Assembly (NCBI GenBank): GCA_963758635.1
Contig: CAVWWD010000004.1
Span: 128,001 to 192,000, forward strand
DNA length: 64,000 nucleotides
Direction: 5' to 3'
From: an uncultured Candidatus Rokubacteria bacterium
GTDB lineage: Bacteria; Methylomirabilota; Methylomirabilia; Rokubacteriales; CSP1-6
Shown here: positions 53,500 through 60,248 of the stretch, one piece after another
Layout of the letters: each line of letters opens with the position of its first letter
Position numbering within the stretch: position 1 is the stretch's first letter
Notes under the pieces: model-generated
Databases searched by the model: none
What the model saw: only the letters and a program-made list of their open reading frames with translations
What the model was told of the DNA's origin: nothing
Program-made: the position numbers and the translations under genes

Positions 53500-54324
53500 A
53501 TGGCCACGATCGAGATCGAAAGGCTCACGCCCCACATCGGCGCGGTGATTCACGGGGTGGACCTCGCGCGGCCCCTCGACGCCGACACGTTCCACGCCGT
53601 GCACGACGCCCTCATGGACAACCTGGTGGTCTTCTTCCGCGACCAGCGCATCACCGTGGACCAGCAGAAGGAGTTCGGGCGCCGGTTCGGGGAGCTGCAC
53701 ATCCATCCCGCAGCGCCCGGCGTGCTCGAGGGCCATCCGGAGATCCTCGTCATCCACGCCGACGAGAAGTCCAAGCGCGTGGCCGGCGAGGACTGGCACT
53801 CCGACGTGTCGTGCGATCCCGAGCCGCCGATGGGCAGCATCCTCCACATGGAGGAGCTGCCGCCGGTGGGCGGCGACACGCTGTTCGCGAGCATGTACGC
53901 GGCCTACGAGACGCTCTCCGAGGAGATGCAGCGCTTCCTGTGCGGGTTCACCGCGATCCACGACGGCGAGCACGTGTACCGCGGGCGCTACGGGTTCGAC
54001 GACACCGGGCGCACGTACCCGCGCGCCGAGCACCCGGTGATCCGCACGCACCCGGTAACGGGCCGGCGCGCGCTGTTCGTCAACCGCGGGTTCACGACGC
54101 GCATCGTCCAGCTCAAGCGAGCGGAGTCGGACGCCCTCCTCCAGTTCCTCTACCGTCACGTCGAGACGCCGGAGCTCCACTGCCGGTTCCGGTGGGCGCG
54201 CCACTCGATCGCCTTCTGGGACAACCGCTGCGTCCAGCACCACGCCATGTGGGACTACTACCCGCAGCGCCGGCACGGCCACCGGGTGACCATCCGGGGC
54301 GACAAGCCGTTCTTCCGCGCATGA
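53500..54324 (+). CDS. TauD/TfdA-family 2OG-Fe(II) dioxygenase
   Basis: WHSDVS, GGDTLF, HPVIRTHP, WDNRCVQH. Confidence 0.92.
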   Translation: MATIEIERLTPHIGAVIHGVDLARPLDADTFHAVHDALMDNLVVFFRDQRITVDQQKEFGRRFGELHIHPAAPGVLEGHPEILVIHADEKSKRVAGEDWHSDVSCDPEPPMGSILHMEELPPVGGDTLFASMYAAYETLSEEMQRFLCGFTAIHDGEHVYRGRYGFDDTGRTYPRAEHPVIRTHPVTGRRALFVNRGFTTRIVQLKRAESDALLQFLYRHVETPELHCRFRWARHSIAFWDNRCVQHHAMWDYYPQRRHGHRVTIRGDKPFFRA

Positions 54325-54480
54325 CCGCGCGCCCGCCGCGCGGGCGGCGGAACCAAAGTTAGTGAGCCCGGTACTCTAGCGCGGGCGGACGAGGTGCAGG
54401 GTGGGCAGTGCGGGATCGCGGGCAGCGAGGACGTGCCTATGTCGCCCATGGGTACGGACGCCAACTGCGCGCCGGTCGGG

Positions 54481-56766
54481 TTATCTCGAGGCGAAGACTA
54501 CTGGAGCGTCGGAGATCTGCGAAAGGTCGAGCTCCAGCTTTGTGAGCGTCTCAATGACAATCGCACCGACCGTGAACGCTCCCCACGCTTCTAGTTTCAG
54601 GATCGCGGGGCCATGCGCGGCGGCGACGCGGCGGATTGGCGGGTTGAACGTCGGGTGCAGATGAAATTCCACCTCACCAACGTCCCCACCGGGCGGCATC
54701 AGGCGCTCCACGCGGAGCTCGACTTCGAACCAGTCGTTGCGGAGCGTCGTGACAGTCCCGGTCAGGGTAAAGCCGTCTTGTTGTCTTTGCCCTCCAAACT
54801 GACCTTGATGAGGATCGTCGGGATTGGTCCTGGGCAGGGGACCGCTCGGCCGGTAGGCGCTGTCCCGAAGAAACGCGATCAGCCGCGCAACGTCGTCCTC
54901 GGAGAGGGCGGCGCCGGGCACGCCACTGAACGCGAAGCCCTGTAGATTCCGCAGCGGCATCAAGGCCCCACCGTGTGACTCCACATCGCCCCAGGAAGTA
55001 CCGGGGAGCAGGATCGGTACCACCCGCAACCCGCGCGCGGCGACGTAGGCGGCCTCCCGCACGCTGTGGGTGCCTGTCATGTAGTTGGGGCTGAGCAGGA
55101 TGAGGATCGCCTGAGCGCGGTTCATGGCCGCCGACAGCGTCTGCGCCCACGCATCGCCCGCCTTCAGGAGGCCACGATCCCAGAGAACAGCTTCGGCGCC
55201 GAAGTTGTCCCGCAGGGCCGCCGCTAACGTCGCCGCATGCTCCACGTCACGGTGACTGTAGCTCAGGTAGAAGGGTCCCACCTCGGCGTAGGGGCTGACG
55301 GCGATGCGGCGACGCTCCTCGTCAATGTCCCCGAGCAACGTCACCGTGCGGTCCGTGAGATAGCTCGTTAGCTGCTCGAACGCCTGTAGCAGCGACCCCG
55401 TCTGCTGTCGTCGTTCGGCCAGCACGGCGAGGACCTCCTCGTAGGCGAAGTACGGCTGGTACAGCACCTCGACTGATCCCCAGTACTCGTGCCGGTCTTT
55501 CGCGGCCAGATGGTGCAGGAACTTCTGGAAGCGGGTGCGCATCTCGGCGCGGGCACGCTCCAGCCGGTCGCGCTCGGCCAGCTCCACCCGTGTCGGTACC
55601 GGCCACACTCGGATGCCCGGCGCACGGGCGGGCGTGAATCGCTGCTGGAAGGCCGACTCGGCGATGGCCGATGCCCCCTTGATGCTCTGCCCGTTGAGTG
55701 TGAAGCACACCACGAGGTCGTCGGGCATCTGGATCGTGCAGATCCCCGAGGCGTCGGAGATCCCGGTGCGACTGTCGATGAGGATGTAGTCGTACTCGGC
55801 CCGGAGGTTCCTTTTGACCGCCTCCAGGAAGACCCCGCCGCCGAGCTTTTCGTGGAACTCCCCCCAGTTGAATGTCGTCACGCTGATCCCGTACGACGGC
55901 CCCTGGCGGCCTGCCGGCACGAAGTCCACTGTCCCCGTGCCCAAAAAGTCCCAGTTGAGCGAGCTGGCGTATCGCGTCAGGTGAGCGTACGACTCGAACC
56001 AACCCTTCGAAGTCGAAGCCGAGTGGGTCCGGGCGCCTTCCACGAAGTCGTTGAGGAAGTCGATCAAGCCCGGGCTGTTCACGATCTCCTTGTCTTCGAT
56101 GAACGGGGCAAAGTAACGGTGCAATCCGGGCGCCTCGAGGTCCCAGTCGATCGTGAGCACACGCTTGCCCCGGGTGGCGAGGATCCAGGCCACGTTGGCC
56201 AGTGCCATCGTGCGCCCTGTTCCTCCCTTGTAGGAATAGAAGGTGATGATGCGGCCCGGTACGGACTCGGGGCTGGCAGAGCGGGTCTCGTGGCTCGCCT
56301 GCCAGTTGTAGACGGCGGACTGGACGCTAGCCGCGAGCAGCTCGGGTGTCGACCAGTCGAGCCCGACGACGTGCTCGTCCTGCACTCGCGCGCGAAACGC
56401 GTCTTGCTTGGCGAGGGCCATGTCTTGCCTGAGGAGGGTGATCGGTACCAATAGGTCGTCGGGGGCGACGAAGATCAGCGTGGCCCGTCCTGCGGCAGCG
56501 GCCGCCTCGTATTCCTGCTCGGCGATCGACTTGACGTCCCCGGGGGGGATGGAGCCGTACAGATGGCCGAGCAGGCCTATGAAGAGATCGCACGTCCGCG
56601 CCTCTTGGAGGGAGACCTCCTTCGGAGGGGTAGGGTCGGCGCCGAGGTACTCCATTGCGCTCAGCGTCACGTTGTCGATGCGGCTCAGTTGCTTGATTAC
56701 CTCGGCGCGGTATGCCGTGATGTCGCTGGTGGTCGAGGCGACGAAGATCTTCATCCTCGATATCAT
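54481..56766 (-). CDS. Multidomain protein DUF4062 + ParA/MinD-like (YSYKGGTGR) ATPase + TIR + pYEATS-like
   Basis: IFVASTTSD...MEY...DLFIGLLG..YGS...EQEY; ITFYSYKGGTGRTMALANVA...DWDLEAPGL...LIDSRTG; YLSYSHRD...LLSPNY...RE; DDP..GQFGG...FHLHPTF...AWGAFTVG...LELDL. Confidence 0.85.
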   Translation of the reverse strand: MISRMKIFVASTTSDITAYRAEVIKQLSRIDNVTLSAMEYLGADPTPPKEVSLQEARTCDLFIGLLGHLYGSIPPGDVKSIAEQEYEAAAAAGRATLIFVAPDDLLVPITLLRQDMALAKQDAFRARVQDEHVVGLDWSTPELLAASVQSAVYNWQASHETRSASPESVPGRIITFYSYKGGTGRTMALANVAWILATRGKRVLTIDWDLEAPGLHRYFAPFIEDKEIVNSPGLIDFLNDFVEGARTHSASTSKGWFESYAHLTRYASSLNWDFLGTGTVDFVPAGRQGPSYGISVTTFNWGEFHEKLGGGVFLEAVKRNLRAEYDYILIDSRTGISDASGICTIQMPDDLVVCFTLNGQSIKGASAIAESAFQQRFTPARAPGIRVWPVPTRVELAERDRLERARAEMRTRFQKFLHHLAAKDRHEYWGSVEVLYQPYFAYEEVLAVLAERRQQTGSLLQAFEQLTSYLTDRTVTLLGDIDEERRRIAVSPYAEVGPFYLSYSHRDVEHAATLAAALRDNFGAEAVLWDRGLLKAGDAWAQTLSAAMNRAQAILILLSPNYMTGTHSVREAAYVAARGLRVVPILLPGTSWGDVESHGGALMPLRNLQGFAFSGVPGAALSEDDVARLIAFLRDSAYRPSGPLPRTNPDDPHQGQFGGQRQQDGFTLTGTVTTLRNDWFEVELRVERLMPPGGDVGEVEFHLHPTFNPPIRRVAAAHGPAILKLEAWGAFTVGAIVIETLTKLELDLSQISDAPVVFASR

Positions 56767-57954
56767 CCTCCGGTCGCCGAGAGCACGAGTCGCGCGCCGA
56801 GCTTGATGCCGCGCGCGTTGGCGCCGGCCTCAAGATCCGGCTGCACCGCGCGCGCCGCCGGATCGGCCGCCACGAGATCCTTCCGGACACTGTGCAGTCG
56901 CTTTTCGAGCCCGACCGAGAAGGATGCTGGGTCGGTGGCCACGACGCAACCTGTGGCCCCCACCCCTGTGCTCCACGGAGCAAGACGCTGCGCAGCGACG
57001 GCCCGAAGCTGTGCGGCGGCGTCGGCGGCGGTGGGCACGGCGGCACCGAACACAAGGGCTGTCCCCGACGCGTTGAGGGCGCCGGCGATCGATGCCACTA
57101 GTGCTGCGTTGTTCGGAGACTCGAGCGACGCGCGATCGGCGATGAGCACGGGCATCTCTCGCGCTGCGATGGATTTCTTGATCTCGTCCCCTGCGGTAGC
57201 GGAGAGCTTCGTCTCCCGAAACAGCAGCGTGGAGCGGTTGGCCACCTCTTCGATCATCGTGTACAGCGACGCGCTTCCAGCTCCAAACGGTAGCGCACGC
57301 TCGTTCGGCGCCGCGAGGATCATGACTGAGGCCCCGTAGCGTACGGGTGTAGTCGTGCCGTGGAACGCGCTGGCCACGGCGTCGAAGGATGCGATGGGCG
57401 CGCCATCGGGAAGCTGAATTGCGGTCACGGTGGCCGCGATCTGTTTTGCAAGCTCGATCAGCACGGTGTTATATGCGTCGGCGCGGGACTTGAGCAAGGC
57501 GAGCGCGTAGAGCCCGTCTGAGACATATTTGGCGGGCAGCCTGACGTTGCTCCACTGATACGGCTGGAGGACCTGTGGGCACTTCCTCGTCCTTGAAGGG
57601 CACCCAGATGACCGGGATGATCGCCTTCGCCTGCCTGCCGGCGTTCGCCGGCACCTGATTCCACGACTGGACGCGCTGCAGGAAGACTTGCACCTCGCGT
57701 CCGCTGTACTCGCTGGTGAAGTAGGGAACGCTGTAGAAGCAGACGCAAACCTTGCAGAGCCGCGACGCATCAGCGAGCCTCGTCATCCACTCGTCGCTGT
57801 TCTCGATGCTCTGGGCGTCGAAGAAGATGATGTCCTCGGGCTTCGTTCCGTGGGGGAGATGCGCGGGCAGCATTTTCTCGAGTCGCTGGACGAACTTCGC
57901 CAGGCGACCGTCGAGGTTGCTGTTTCTGGCGTAAGAGATGAAGCAGAGTTTCAT
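56763..57954 (-). CDS. FxsC-like TIR-domain protein, frameshift near 57578
   Basis: FISYAR...FFDAQSIE...W...YSVPYFTSEYSGREV...IIPVIWVP, then LQPYQW...Y..DGL..L...Y...LAKQI; ATGA overlap with the downstream gene. Confidence 0.78.
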
Positions 57955-58216
57955 GTCGGCCCCCGGCGGGTCTCCGTCCCTCGGCAGGGAGGGCGTCTCA
58001 TACACTGATCGGCGTGGGATGGACGCGAGACTCACGCAAGAATTGATACGCTGATCGGCGCTGCGGCGTCAGTAGTGGTGAAGAAGGGGAGACTCGGATC
58101 TCCTCACCGTTGCCCGGCACATGACCCTGAATCATGCGCGTGTCTGCCAATTCCGCCACTTCGGCGCAGGAGCTCCACTAGGATACTGACGAGGTGTGTG
58201 AAGTCAAGGGGAGCCG

Positions 58217-58330
58217 ATGCCATCCGAGAATATCGTCGCCACCGATTGCCCGGCCCAGCATCTCTTGATGTCTTCCAGACCTACGAGGCGGGACTTGTCG
58301 TCCCGGGAACCGAGGTGAAGTCGCTGCGCT
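58217..58330 (+). pseudogene. smpB: smpB 5' fragment
   Basis: RBS + MPSENIVAT..., frameshift, then TYEAGLVVPGTEVKSLR (SmpB signature); rest missing. Confidence 0.7.
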
Positions 58331-58586
58331 GGCGTCCAGGAGCGGACGCGGTCCGCGTCGTGGAGAACGCCGCGCGTGGGACGATATTCCACCGGTGTGG
58401 CCGGACGCCTCAACGCGGCCTTGGAACCAAGTGCGGGGCCGCTTCTTCCCCGCGTGCTACGTGGGATCCCGCGCAGAAGCCGGCAGGGCGGCGTCCCGAC
58501 TTTCCACATCACGCAGGGCACTACTGCGGAACGAGCCTCGGCCTGTGTATCCTGGGCCACCGCACTCTCGGCCCGCGGATCGCCGG

Positions 58587-58796
58587 ATGGTGAAGGAGAT
58601 CTGGCTGACCGCGGCCGGGTTCGTCCTCGGCTGGCTCACCAGCAAGACCTGGAGCGACCCGGGCTGCCAGGTCGGCCTCGCCATCTTCCTCGTCGTGACC
58701 GCCGTCCTCGTGCTGGTGTTCGCGGTCGCCGTCACCGCGCCGCGCAAGCAAGACGGCGATGGCGACGACGAACCCAAGGACAAGGACGCCTCGTGA
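58587..58796 (+). CDS. Small membrane protein
   Basis: Two hydrophobic segments; GTGA overlap with the next gene. Confidence 0.5.
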   Translation: MVKEIWLTAAGFVLGWLTSKTWSDPGCQVGLAIFLVVTAVLVLVFAVAVTAPRKQDGDGDDEPKDKDAS

Positions 58797-59428
58797 CGCG
58801 CGCTCCCCGCGCCGCCCCGCCGTGGACGCCGGGCGAGCTGCGCCGGCTCCGCGCGCTCCGCTCGCCGTGGGGCATCCAGCGCGCGCTCGACGCGATGCCC
58901 TACCACCTGGCCTCCACCGCGTGGTCGCCGCGCCGCGTGCTGCGCGAGGGCACCGCGCACTGCCTGGAGGGCGCCATCTTCGCCGCCGCGGCGCTCCGCG
59001 TGCTGGGCTTCCCGCCGCTGCTCATCGACCTGGAGGCGGTGCAGGACACCGACCACGTGCTCGCGGTGTTCCGCGTCGGCGGCCACTGGGGCGCCATCGG
59101 CAAGTCGAACTTCTCGGGGCTCCGCTTCCGGCCGCCCGTGCATCGCACGCTGCGCGAGCTGGCCATGAGCTACTTCGAGAGCTACATCAACCTGCGCGGC
59201 GACCGGACCCTGCGCGCGTTCTCGCGCCCCGTGCACCTGGGCCGCTTCGACCGGACGCACCCGGGCTGGACGGTCACCGAGGGCGACCTCTGGTTCATCC
59301 CCGAGCACCTGGTGGGGCTGCCCCACACGCCGCTCGTCACGCCCGCGATGGTGCGAGCCCTCACCCGGGTCGATGGGCGCTCGCTCCGCGCCGGCGTCGT
59401 CGGCTACCGGGCGCCGGCCGGATCCTGA
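58793..59428 (+). CDS. Conserved protein, transglutaminase-like Cys-His motif
   Basis: SPRRVL...AHCLEGAIFAAA...DTDHVLAVF...WGAIGKSNFSGLR. Confidence 0.7.
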   Translation: MTRAPRAAPPWTPGELRRLRALRSPWGIQRALDAMPYHLASTAWSPRRVLREGTAHCLEGAIFAAAALRVLGFPPLLIDLEAVQDTDHVLAVFRVGGHWGAIGKSNFSGLRFRPPVHRTLRELAMSYFESYINLRGDRTLRAFSRPVHLGRFDRTHPGWTVTEGDLWFIPEHLVGLPHTPLVTPAMVRALTRVDGRSLRAGVVGYRAPAGS

Positions 59429-59457: not shown

Positions 59458-60141
59458 ATGGACGGCGTGCACGACGTCGGCGGCATGCACGGGTTCGGGC
59501 CCGTGGAGCGCGAGCAGGACGAGCCGGTCTTCCACGGCGCGTGGGAGGCCGCGGTCGTGGCCATGATGCGCGCCGGCGGGCGCCGCGGCGTCTACAACAT
59601 CGACGAGTTCCGCCACGGCATCGAGCGAATGGATCCCGCGCACTACCTGGCCTCGAGCTACTACGAGCACTGGCTCGACGGCATCACCCGCATCTTCCTG
59701 GAGAAGGGCGTCGTCGGCGCCGAGGAGCTGGCGGCCCGGACGGAGTTCTTCCGGGCCCGGCCCGAGCTGCCCGCCGCCGCGGCCCTGTCGGGGCCGCCTC
59801 CCCCTCGCGTCCCCCACGCCGAGTGGGTCCAGAGCGCGGTGCGCGAGGGCCAGGGGACGCCGCGCTTCGCCCCCGGCGACGCCGTCGTCACGCGGAACTT
59901 CCATCCCACGGGCCACACGCGGCTGCCGCGCTACGCGCGAGGCAAGCGCGGCGTCATCCACGTGGTGCACGGCACCCACGTGTTCCCCGACACCAACGCC
60001 CACGGCCTCGGCGAGGCGCCGCAGCCGCTCTACAGCGTGCGCTTCGAGGCCCGCGAGCTCTGGGGCGAGTCGGCGGAGCCGAACCAGCGCGTCCACCTCG
60101 ATCTCTGGGAGGCCTACCTCCTGCCCGGGAAGAGCTCGTGA
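59458..60141 (+). CDS. nthB: Nitrile hydratase beta subunit
   Basis: MDGVHDVGGMHGFG, RHGIERM, YYEHW, GHTRLPRYARGKRG, DLWEAYL. Confidence 0.95.
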   Translation: MDGVHDVGGMHGFGPVEREQDEPVFHGAWEAAVVAMMRAGGRRGVYNIDEFRHGIERMDPAHYLASSYYEHWLDGITRIFLEKGVVGAEELAARTEFFRARPELPAAAALSGPPPPRVPHAEWVQSAVREGQGTPRFAPGDAVVTRNFHPTGHTRLPRYARGKRGVIHVVHGTHVFPDTNAHGLGEAPQPLYSVRFEARELWGESAEPNQRVHLDLWEAYLLPGKSS

Positions 60142-60248
60142 ATGAATGGCGAGGCGGCCCCACGTGTGTACGCAGAATCGCGGTGTTGGCGCGCACGGCG
60201 AAGTCGAAATCCGCAATCCTTCACAACCCGGTGAGGTGAGCGAGGGCC

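Follow-up and report, generated by a model that had tools for sequence, protein, structure and literature searches.

The DNA analysed here, a stretch of 64,000 nucleotides (nt) from an uncultured Candidatus Rokubacteria bacterium that we refer to as the window, carries at positions 54481-57954 a pair of adjacent genes, A and B. The pair is a rare variant, with an added DUF4062, of a type of locus already catalogued as TIR-ParA by Li, Burroughs and Aravind in a computational study (bioRxiv 10.64898/2026.10.19.760177, 22 Oct 2026; hereafter the TIR-ParA preprint). Based on its domain content, we consider it rather probable that the pair belongs to the pYEATS ('ligand-binding') subtype of TIR-ParA, extended by a rare N-terminal DUF4062 domain, and that it forms a predicted abortive-infection module depleting nicotinamide adenine dinucleotide (NAD+). 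An earlier reading of the same DNA, made from the letters and their translations (the sequence-only reading), had presented the two genes as a likely undescribed immunity system. That label did not stand. The core architecture was found already catalogued, as the preprint, in its available parts, both defines TIR-ParA and names pYEATS as a sensor. The more general idea of the same reading, a module joining a sensor, an NTPase and an NADase, would fit the domain content.

According to the available parts of the TIR-ParA preprint, an active TIR-FC domain is encoded upstream, often together with an inactive TIR termed FxsC-C, and the ParA protein is often fused to an inactive TIR-FT and to sensors. 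For the 'ligand-binding subtype', the C-terminal sensors named there include pYEATS. In the model given, the sensor works through the ParA switch, which turns on the TIR, leading to destruction of NAD+. The pair in the window was found to have a ParA-clade NTPase, an upstream Glu-bearing TIR-FC, the order TIR then ParA, and a C-terminal pYEATS domain. Its parts were mapped as follows.

56763..57954, minus strand: gene A, FxsC-like, TIR-FC plus FxsC-C, 396 amino acids if an extra base at about 57576 is ignored
57410..57954, minus strand: TIR-FC domain of gene A, covering about residues 1-180; E87 of 'SGREV' is the Glu at the catalytic position (FxsC_Nterm and TIR_2)
57575..57579, no strand assigned: site of one surplus base beside a run of GGG; the plus strand reads GTGGG (short-read contigs and restoration of the open reading frame)
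56856..57347, minus strand: FxsC-C domain of gene A, predicted five-unit beta/alpha fold of flavodoxin or TIR type (AlphaFold2 model)
54481..56766, minus strand: gene B, DUF4062-ParA(KGGTGR)-TIR-pYEATS, 761 amino acids (open reading frame, Pfam and NCBIfam)
56272..56751, minus strand: N-terminal module of gene B, DUF4062/NIR at residues 6-89 with E83 as candidate catalytic Glu, followed by a linker that contains 'KQDAFRARVQD' and reaches about residue 165 (Pfam and structure alignment)
55327..56253, minus strand: ParA/MinD-like NTPase of gene B, KGGVGR variant, residues 172 to about 480 (NF047398)
54997..55272, minus strand: TIR domain C-terminal to ParA, residues 499-590, Glu E571 (TIR_2)
54520..54729, minus strand: pYEATS domain, residues 680-749 (Pfam PF20305)

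Gene A starts with ATG at 57954 and ends with a stop codon at 56763-56765, in two frames that meet near 57576. Its TGA stop and the ATG start of gene B share four nt, as ATGA, at 56763-56766, in agreement with the translational coupling read earlier from the sequence. A second ATG of gene B (M5) lies 12 nt downstream of the first and may be the true start, since the start of a close relative, P0002, matches it. The database gene calls for the window, P0001 (646 amino acids) and P0270 (244 amino acids), are shorter than the true open reading frames. The lower GC content that the sequence-only reading had noticed was also seen: the GC fraction is 0.649 for 54481-58035 against 0.7095 for the window, making this segment the lowest-GC 3.5 kb of the window, and none of 534 non-overlapping 3.5-kb stretches had a GC as low. 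GC at third codon positions (GC3) is 0.77-0.87 in the segment and 0.94-0.98 in four neighbouring genes; one further neighbour, the gene of a substrate-binding protein, has a GC3 of 0.72.

Pfam and NCBIfam returned all the domains called by the sequence-only reading, namely DUF4062, a KGGTGR ATPase, TIR and pYEATS in gene B and an FxsC-type TIR in gene A, and every motif it had quoted could be located. The NCBIfam model AAA_KGGVGR (NF047398) matched residues 172-370 of B (E = 3.5e-44; 151 bits against a cut-off of 90). In an alignment of 27 sequences the conservation extends to about residue 480, and the ParA domain is therefore larger than the NCBIfam model. The motif YSYKGGTGR occupies residues 177-185, with the Walker A reading KGGTGR and an Arg at the P-loop Lys position. 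K180 and R185 are present in all 111 homologues covering the column, and D207, D209, E211, D331 and R333 in 119/119.

C-terminal to the ParA domain, the Pfam family TIR_2 was matched at residues 499-590 (E = 7.4e-14), with the RE motif at 570-571. A profile of this fused TIR (A1) matched the solved NADase TIRs AbTIR, SARM1 and Cat1, and the profile Glu (E571) pairs with the target Glu in both printed alignments (4lzp and Cat1). Among 119 close homologues the E571 column holds E in 94, Q in 11 and D in 4. The same position is occupied by R, S, L, L and V in five FxsT-type proteins, and by Q and T in two more distant pYEATS proteins. Judged from these alignments, the E571 TIR is possibly catalytic. 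The pYEATS family PF20305 matched residues 680-749 (E = 4.5e-15), and the eukaryotic YEATS family PF03366 gave E = 0.0021. FHLHPTF lies at residues 701-707 and WGAFTVG at 728-734; within 119 homologues, F701 is kept in 116, H704 in 116, G729 in 118 and F731 in 109. Gene B is fully open and retains its conserved residues. A second protein with the same architecture is P0002 (758 amino acids), with 65% identity to B over 99% of the length.

The feature that sets this pair apart is the N-terminal module of gene B. Pfam DUF4062 (PF13271) matched residues 6-89 with E = 6.7e-17 over the full model (1-82 of 82), and the EQEY motif corresponds to residues 83-86. The solved DUF4062 structure of KpSwz (10wc) aligns to B 4-118 with E = 0.012, placing E82 of its chain opposite E83 of B; from the 15/16-C constructs we infer that chain residue E82 is the published KpSwz E97. 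An AlphaFold2 model of B 1-170 was obtained with a predicted local distance difference test (pLDDT) of 78.5 and a predicted template modelling score (pTM) of 0.80. With this model, Foldseek found TIR-STING, nucleoside deoxyribosyltransferases, SPARTA TIR-APAZ, DNPH1, MilB and SARM1, at E values of 2e-4 to 1.5e-3. The DUF4062 of gene B is thus predicted to be a DUF4062/NIR domain of NADase type, on a fold like that of TIR and nucleoside deoxyribosyltransferase with a conserved Glu, and to have NADase activity. In the available parts of two preprints, DUF4062 is an NADase effector in phage defence that requires its Glu (10.64898/2026.05.01.722283, 10.64898/2026.09.04.749371), and the Glu mutants KpSwz E97A, PsAvs2 E108Q, Vulcan E98Q, Vesta E103 and hTEP1 E1008Q abolish defence or activity. 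A third 2026 preprint, as far as its available parts go, also reports a DUF4062 NADase effector (10.64898/2026.06.25.731849).

Fusion of DUF4062 to a ParA protein is rare. Besides B, only P0002 has it among the 120 best homologues. A search with B 1-170 yielded five proteins among 1480 candidates, these being P0002, the truncated gene call of the window and three DUF4062-NB-ARC-TPR proteins. When B 1-420 was compared by filter-free HMMER with 1.84 billion representatives, 14348 matches were obtained; of the 150 listed, P0002 is the only one to align from residue 5, and the other 149 begin at residue 159 or later of B. DUF4062 was found by Pfam in none of 35 ParA proteins from related loci, and two narrow DUF4062 peptide patterns had no match in the 600 stretches of a metagenome scan. 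The records of P0002 and of P0272, an intact gene A homologue of 398 amino acids, both give a contig of 4662 bp, so a second lineage probably has the DUF4062 variant as a gene pair as well. The DUF4062-NB-ARC-TPR proteins P0121-P0123 can be aligned with B from residue 1 to about residue 150; they read RQDAFRARVQD where the window reads KQDAFRARVQD. Because the alignment spans DUF4062 plus the following stretch to about residue 150, it looks as if the whole effector module was transplanted from STAND-type proteins.

Two further observations concern N-terminal extensions and other DUF4062 matches. The genome of the window has a second DUF4062 match, G000:C3:3461-3700 (L101), which scores 29 bits (over the cut-off) in a frame of 186 amino acids unlinked to the pair. 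The ParA(-TIR-pYEATS) proteins P0090, P0143 and P0168 carry another N-terminal extension, of about 165 amino acids, that matches no Pfam family; its pattern of strands and helices aligns loosely with DUF4062, and the Glu is missing. The extension of P0090 and P0168 was tried as a DUF4062 homologue and dropped, given an hhalign probability below 1% and no Pfam match.

In gene A, the match to the NCBIfam model FxsC_Nterm is divided between the two frames: one covers model positions 4-141 (E = 1.7e-20), the other 124-180 (E = 1.5e-5), and neither piece of the split gene reaches the cut-off of 130 bits. TIR_2 also matched (E = 1.2e-6), and the GRE motif corresponds to residues 85-87. The Glu at the E87 position of TIR-FC is kept in at least 90% of 75 homologues and invariant in 39/39 sequences of a second alignment.

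The FxsC-C part matched no Pfam or NCBIfam family. Its AlphaFold2 model, built on an alignment of 40 sequences, has a pLDDT of 78.3 and five beta/alpha units (residues 82-236 of the C-terminal piece). Foldseek ranked type II dehydroquinase first (E = 2e-4, template modelling score about 0.55), a match read as generic flavodoxin-like similarity, and a dehydroquinase function was dropped. With VIA-align, TIR-STING scored Z 11.1 and the RPS4 TIR Z 10.7, and receiver domains were level with them at about Z 10. The modelled fold is compatible with the preprint's 'inactive TIR' and equally with other flavodoxin-like folds. Some positions kept in the wider family are changed in the window, namely the W of 'DWxPY', the W of 'VDxW' and 'LVPWN', and close intact homologues carry the same deviations.

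The first frame of gene A runs from MKLCFISY to FKDEEVP and the second from VLQPYQWSN to the stop. The sequence-only reading had flagged an indel at 57578, and it is indeed real in the assembly. Logan contigs of four runs were placed on 54400-58100. Two of the contigs, one of run X1 (151 nt, 57513-57660) and one of run X3 (151 nt, 57464-57615), which come from different studies, have one letter fewer at 57576 and are otherwise identical to the window. Removal of any single base in 57575-57579 gives an open frame of 396 amino acids, with no other stops. The close homologues P0272, P0274, P0276, P0277 and P0278 (388-398 amino acids) are continuous across the junction, and in related loci such as L060 both pieces share one frame. 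An ENA protein, P0271, from a 7104-bp contig and with 81% identity, has long stretches identical to FxsC-C of the window with garbled segments between them; this garbling by further frame changes suggests error-prone assemblies of this population. Since the contigs of two studies do not have the extra base and its removal restores the frame of 396 amino acids, we take the extra base at 57576 to be probably an artefact of assembly rather than a lesion, and the pair is therefore likely intact in the organism. The case shows that public short-read contigs can resolve a frameshift in a long assembly.

Relatives of the pair are widespread. A word-indexed protein search gave 2662 proteins at E <= 0.001 among 7997 scored. 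In precomputed Pfam results, pYEATS is present in 117 of the 120 best homologues, most of which have 570-640 amino acids and start just before the Walker A. In species-representative genomes, relatives are encoded in 600 of 605 candidate stretches. The 79 loci retained, with 84 ParA genes, come from Acidobacteriota, Planctomycetota and Actinomycetota, among other groups. Within 2.5 kb upstream, a TIR-FC-like sequence is present for 75 of the 84 ParA genes; if only the 78 genes with 1400 nt or more of upstream DNA are counted, the figure is 74. A four-nt overlap was seen for 15 pairs in related loci, with the longest open reading frame taken and start codons uncurated. The C-termini vary: of 35 ParA proteins scanned with Pfam, seven have pYEATS, and the others have TIR-NB-ARC-TPR (Streptomyces, Frankia, Phytohabitans), nSTAND1 plus TPR or WD40, or pentapeptide repeats. 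Some homologues are named 'pYEATS domain-containing protein involved in immunity' by JGI. In five related loci (L007, L011, L020, L023 and L042) ParA is fused to a further TIR-FC-like region and a second ParA gene follows, forming head-to-tail TIR-ParA repeats.

Closer to the host, the pair is uncommon. Of the 101 genomes of the order, 5 have a KGGVGR match above the family cut-off, that of the window (G000) among them, and a single-protein query among the genome contigs found no relative. For 30 relatives, none of the DNA matches listed falls on the pair except one of 58 nt. No phage record matched the pair. Among plasmids, 28 records match the ParA or TIR part only, none covering 80% of the query. 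The segment has an accessory character, with an atypical composition and a patchy distribution.

A mechanism for the pair was derived from the model of the TIR-ParA preprint combined with the DUF4062 experiments of 2026. The pYEATS domain would bind a putative ligand, either derived from the phage or induced by infection. The KGGTGR ParA would then act as an NTP-dependent switch and multimerisation hub, as the STAND NTPase does in Avs and NLR-like proteins. Assembly would bring about proximity activation of the NADase domains, that is, TIR-FC in trans, DUF4062 in cis and possibly the E571 TIR. FxsC-C would likely serve as a non-catalytic assembly domain. NAD+ would fall, and the infected cell would die or arrest its growth. 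A Glu at the catalytic position is kept in three domains, as E87 of TIR-FC, E83 of DUF4062 and E571 of the fused TIR.

Several points weigh against this assignment. TIR-ParA systems are known from computation alone. NTP hydrolysis by the ParA of gene B is not assured, given the Arg at the P-loop Lys position. The ligand proposed for pYEATS is hypothetical and the association of proteins A and B putative. In the available parts of the TIR-ParA preprint, the ParA-fused TIR is called inactive. The assembly as it stands, with the extra base, has a frameshift in gene A; the X1 and X3 contigs have depths of 3.7 and 2.2, and a difference in one contig below depth 5 may itself be an error. No known defence genes were found among the 12 neighbouring open reading frames. 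The ParA of the window resembles PADLOC candidate PDC-M28 in matching component PDC-M28B (E = 3.7e-24), but the match covers model positions 115-191 of 438 only, and PADLOC models did not match any of 4 TIR-FC partners. PDC-M28 was dropped as the known name of the system, the match being partial and to one component and the term not having been found in a literature search.

Three domains with a catalytic-position Glu exceed the needs of a simple effector, and the pair could instead be a signalling circuit in which TIR-FC or the E571 TIR makes an NAD-derived nucleotide, pYEATS or ParA senses it and DUF4062 executes, a Thoeris-like arrangement in two proteins. The TIR-ParA preprint, in its available parts, allows TIR-type domains to serve as signal generators and sensors. 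The Glu of the ParA-fused TIR is kept in this clade and not in the five FxsT proteins compared. However, YEATS domains are known for reading acyl-lysine and are not known to bind nucleotides, and the signal product is purely hypothetical. The DUF4062 fusion is also absent from nearly all relatives (seen in 1 of the 120 best homologues and 1 of the 150 best HMMER matches), and the core system would therefore work without a separate executioner. We judge such a circuit unlikely. It is quite unlikely, too, that the pair has a non-antiviral role, whether in regulated death or dormancy in a community or during development, or as an addiction module that stabilises the acquired segment. Such a role would accord with the lack of adjacent defence genes, with a gene pair overlapping by four nt, which recalls toxin-antitoxin organisation, and with the enrichment in multicellular bacteria and the 'apoptosis' wording in the available text of the preprint. 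Yet TIR, DUF4062, pYEATS and KGGVGR ParA have all been reported from conflict systems, as far as the available parts of the sources go, and the JGI naming of homologues as well as the patchy distribution speak for a part in conflict.

If the frameshift in gene A were real, the module would be a decaying relic, defunct in this genome. Besides the frameshift in the assembly as given, the FxsC-C deviations at 'DWxPY', 'VDxW' and 'LVPWN' and the other degenerate fragments adjoining the segment, a pseudo-tRNA and a piece of smpB, point this way. Against this, the otherwise identical contigs of two other studies do not have the extra base, the garbling of P0271 is typical of error-prone assemblies of this population, and the loss of one base gives a protein of 396 amino acids, within the 388-398 of intact homologues, with no other stops. 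The deviations are common to close intact homologues, and gene B is open with its conserved residues. We regard decay as very unlikely, and the reading of the pair as a predicted NAD+-depleting module of the TIR-ParA kind was kept.

Two degenerate features flank the segment.

58075..58166, minus strand: pseudo-tRNA-Leu, degenerate, at the upstream edge of the low-GC segment (aligned to tRNA-Leu(CAG) of G000:C9, G016, G003 and G004)
58215..58328, plus strand: smpB-like gene, truncated degenerate 5' fragment (first ~40 codons), beside the pseudo-tRNA (DNA alignment)

Together, 58075-58328 make up a degenerate copy of a tRNA-Leu(CAG)/smpB junction. The intact copy in the same genome, G000:C9:257643-257897, has 75% identity to it, and three relatives align too; the assignment of the second fragment to smpB comes from reading the translated consensus. 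ARAGORN calls a tRNA in the four true copies and none in the window. A functional tRNA or an Rfam family at 58075-58328 had been considered; none was called by ARAGORN or Rfam, and the alignment gave the degenerate tRNA-Leu. The fragment may be a scar of acquisition or rearrangement. Direct repeats that could mark an attachment site around the segment were sought, and only two-copy matches of 15-19 nt, none of them convincing, were obtained. The sole sigma-70-like site in 54200-58500 lies at 58180-58207 on the minus strand (TTGACT, 16 nt, TATCCT), inside the tRNA/smpB fragment. This is the expected position of the promoter of the tRNA itself, and the site could be a captured tRNA promoter that now drives gene A, to judge from the consensus match only.

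A defence-island context, which the sequence-only reading had named as a point to check, was not found, the 12 neighbouring open reading frames being metabolic or without a family. They include TauD, the beta and alpha subunits of nitrile hydratase, NIPSNAP, a luciferase-like monooxygenase and an ABC substrate-binding protein, and three have no family. The nitrile hydratase alpha subunit has a database match of at least 90% identity that carries the label Candidatus Rokuibacteriota, a hint as to the host. Between the segment and the nitrile hydratase genes lies an open reading frame of 350 amino acids (58376-59428, plus strand) that matches no Pfam family. Past the nitrile hydratase beta gene, about 65 nt at 60134-60200 have at least five other copies in the genome (contigs C3, C5 and C8) at 90-97% identity, with the look of a repetitive extragenic palindrome.

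Of the known systems, TIR-ParA is the closest. As described in the available parts of the preprint, it has the same gene order, with an upstream TIR-FC bearing a catalytic Glu followed by FxsC-C, and a downstream ParA with a C-terminal TIR and pYEATS. The window differs in the N-terminal DUF4062 of its ParA protein, the word DUF4062 occurring 0 times in the main text of the preprint. It also differs in that its ParA-fused TIR keeps the Glu which, by the same source, TIR-FT has lost; the loss is given there for 'a subset', and E571 is therefore no bar to membership. Besides this preprint, no other relevant work on TIR-ParA appeared among the matches listed in the literature search.

The comparison with actinobacterial FxSxx-COOH (FxsAB) loci, made in the sequence-only reading, was well founded. 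These loci likewise have an FxsC-type TIR gene directly before a TIR-bearing KGGVGR ParA (FxsC/FxsT), and in Streptomyces, Frankia and Phytohabitans a ParA-TIR_2-NB-ARC-TPR protein is encoded downstream of an FxsC-like gene. The window has no NB-ARC/TPR, with pYEATS in place of the STAND module, and it keeps the TIR Glu; its host is Candidatus Rokubacteria, whereas those loci are actinobacterial. The earlier statement that NB-ARC/TPR had been replaced by DUF4062, TIR and pYEATS thus holds for pYEATS but not for the TIR, which FxsT-type proteins also have, nor for DUF4062, which is an N-terminal addition. In agreement with the same reading, FxsB was not found: the best match to TIGR04269 in the genome of the window, which is 87% complete, scores 21.6 bits against a cut-off of 370 and is on another contig. 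FxsA was not searched for by family, and the neighbours of the pair are metabolic.

The DUF4062/NIR defence proteins (Avs2-NIR, Swarozyc, Evangelion, Vulcan and Vesta), in the available parts of their descriptions, share with gene B an N-terminal, Glu-bearing DUF4062 before an NTPase and a sensor, and the closest relatives of the window's DUF4062 outside its clade are DUF4062-NB-ARC-TPR proteins. In contrast, the NTPase of the window is of the ParA type (SIMIBI), not STAND, and the window has a separate TIR protein and a further TIR domain. A far-reaching version of this comparison, which we hold to be improbable, is that a ParA NTPase took the position of the STAND hub for a DUF4062/NIR NADase: the module of a DUF4062-NB-ARC-TPR protein would have been grafted onto a TIR-ParA-pYEATS system, giving two proteins with three potential domains of NADase type that possibly divide signal making and execution between them. 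The locus itself is a further member of a widespread family and brings no new principle. What the variant does is tie the computationally predicted TIR-ParA systems to DUF4062/NIR, for which experiments of 2026 demonstrated NADase activity and a role in defence. Carrying a known executioner on its ParA switch, the variant offers a convenient entry point to whether ParA acts in the STAND role and to what pYEATS senses.

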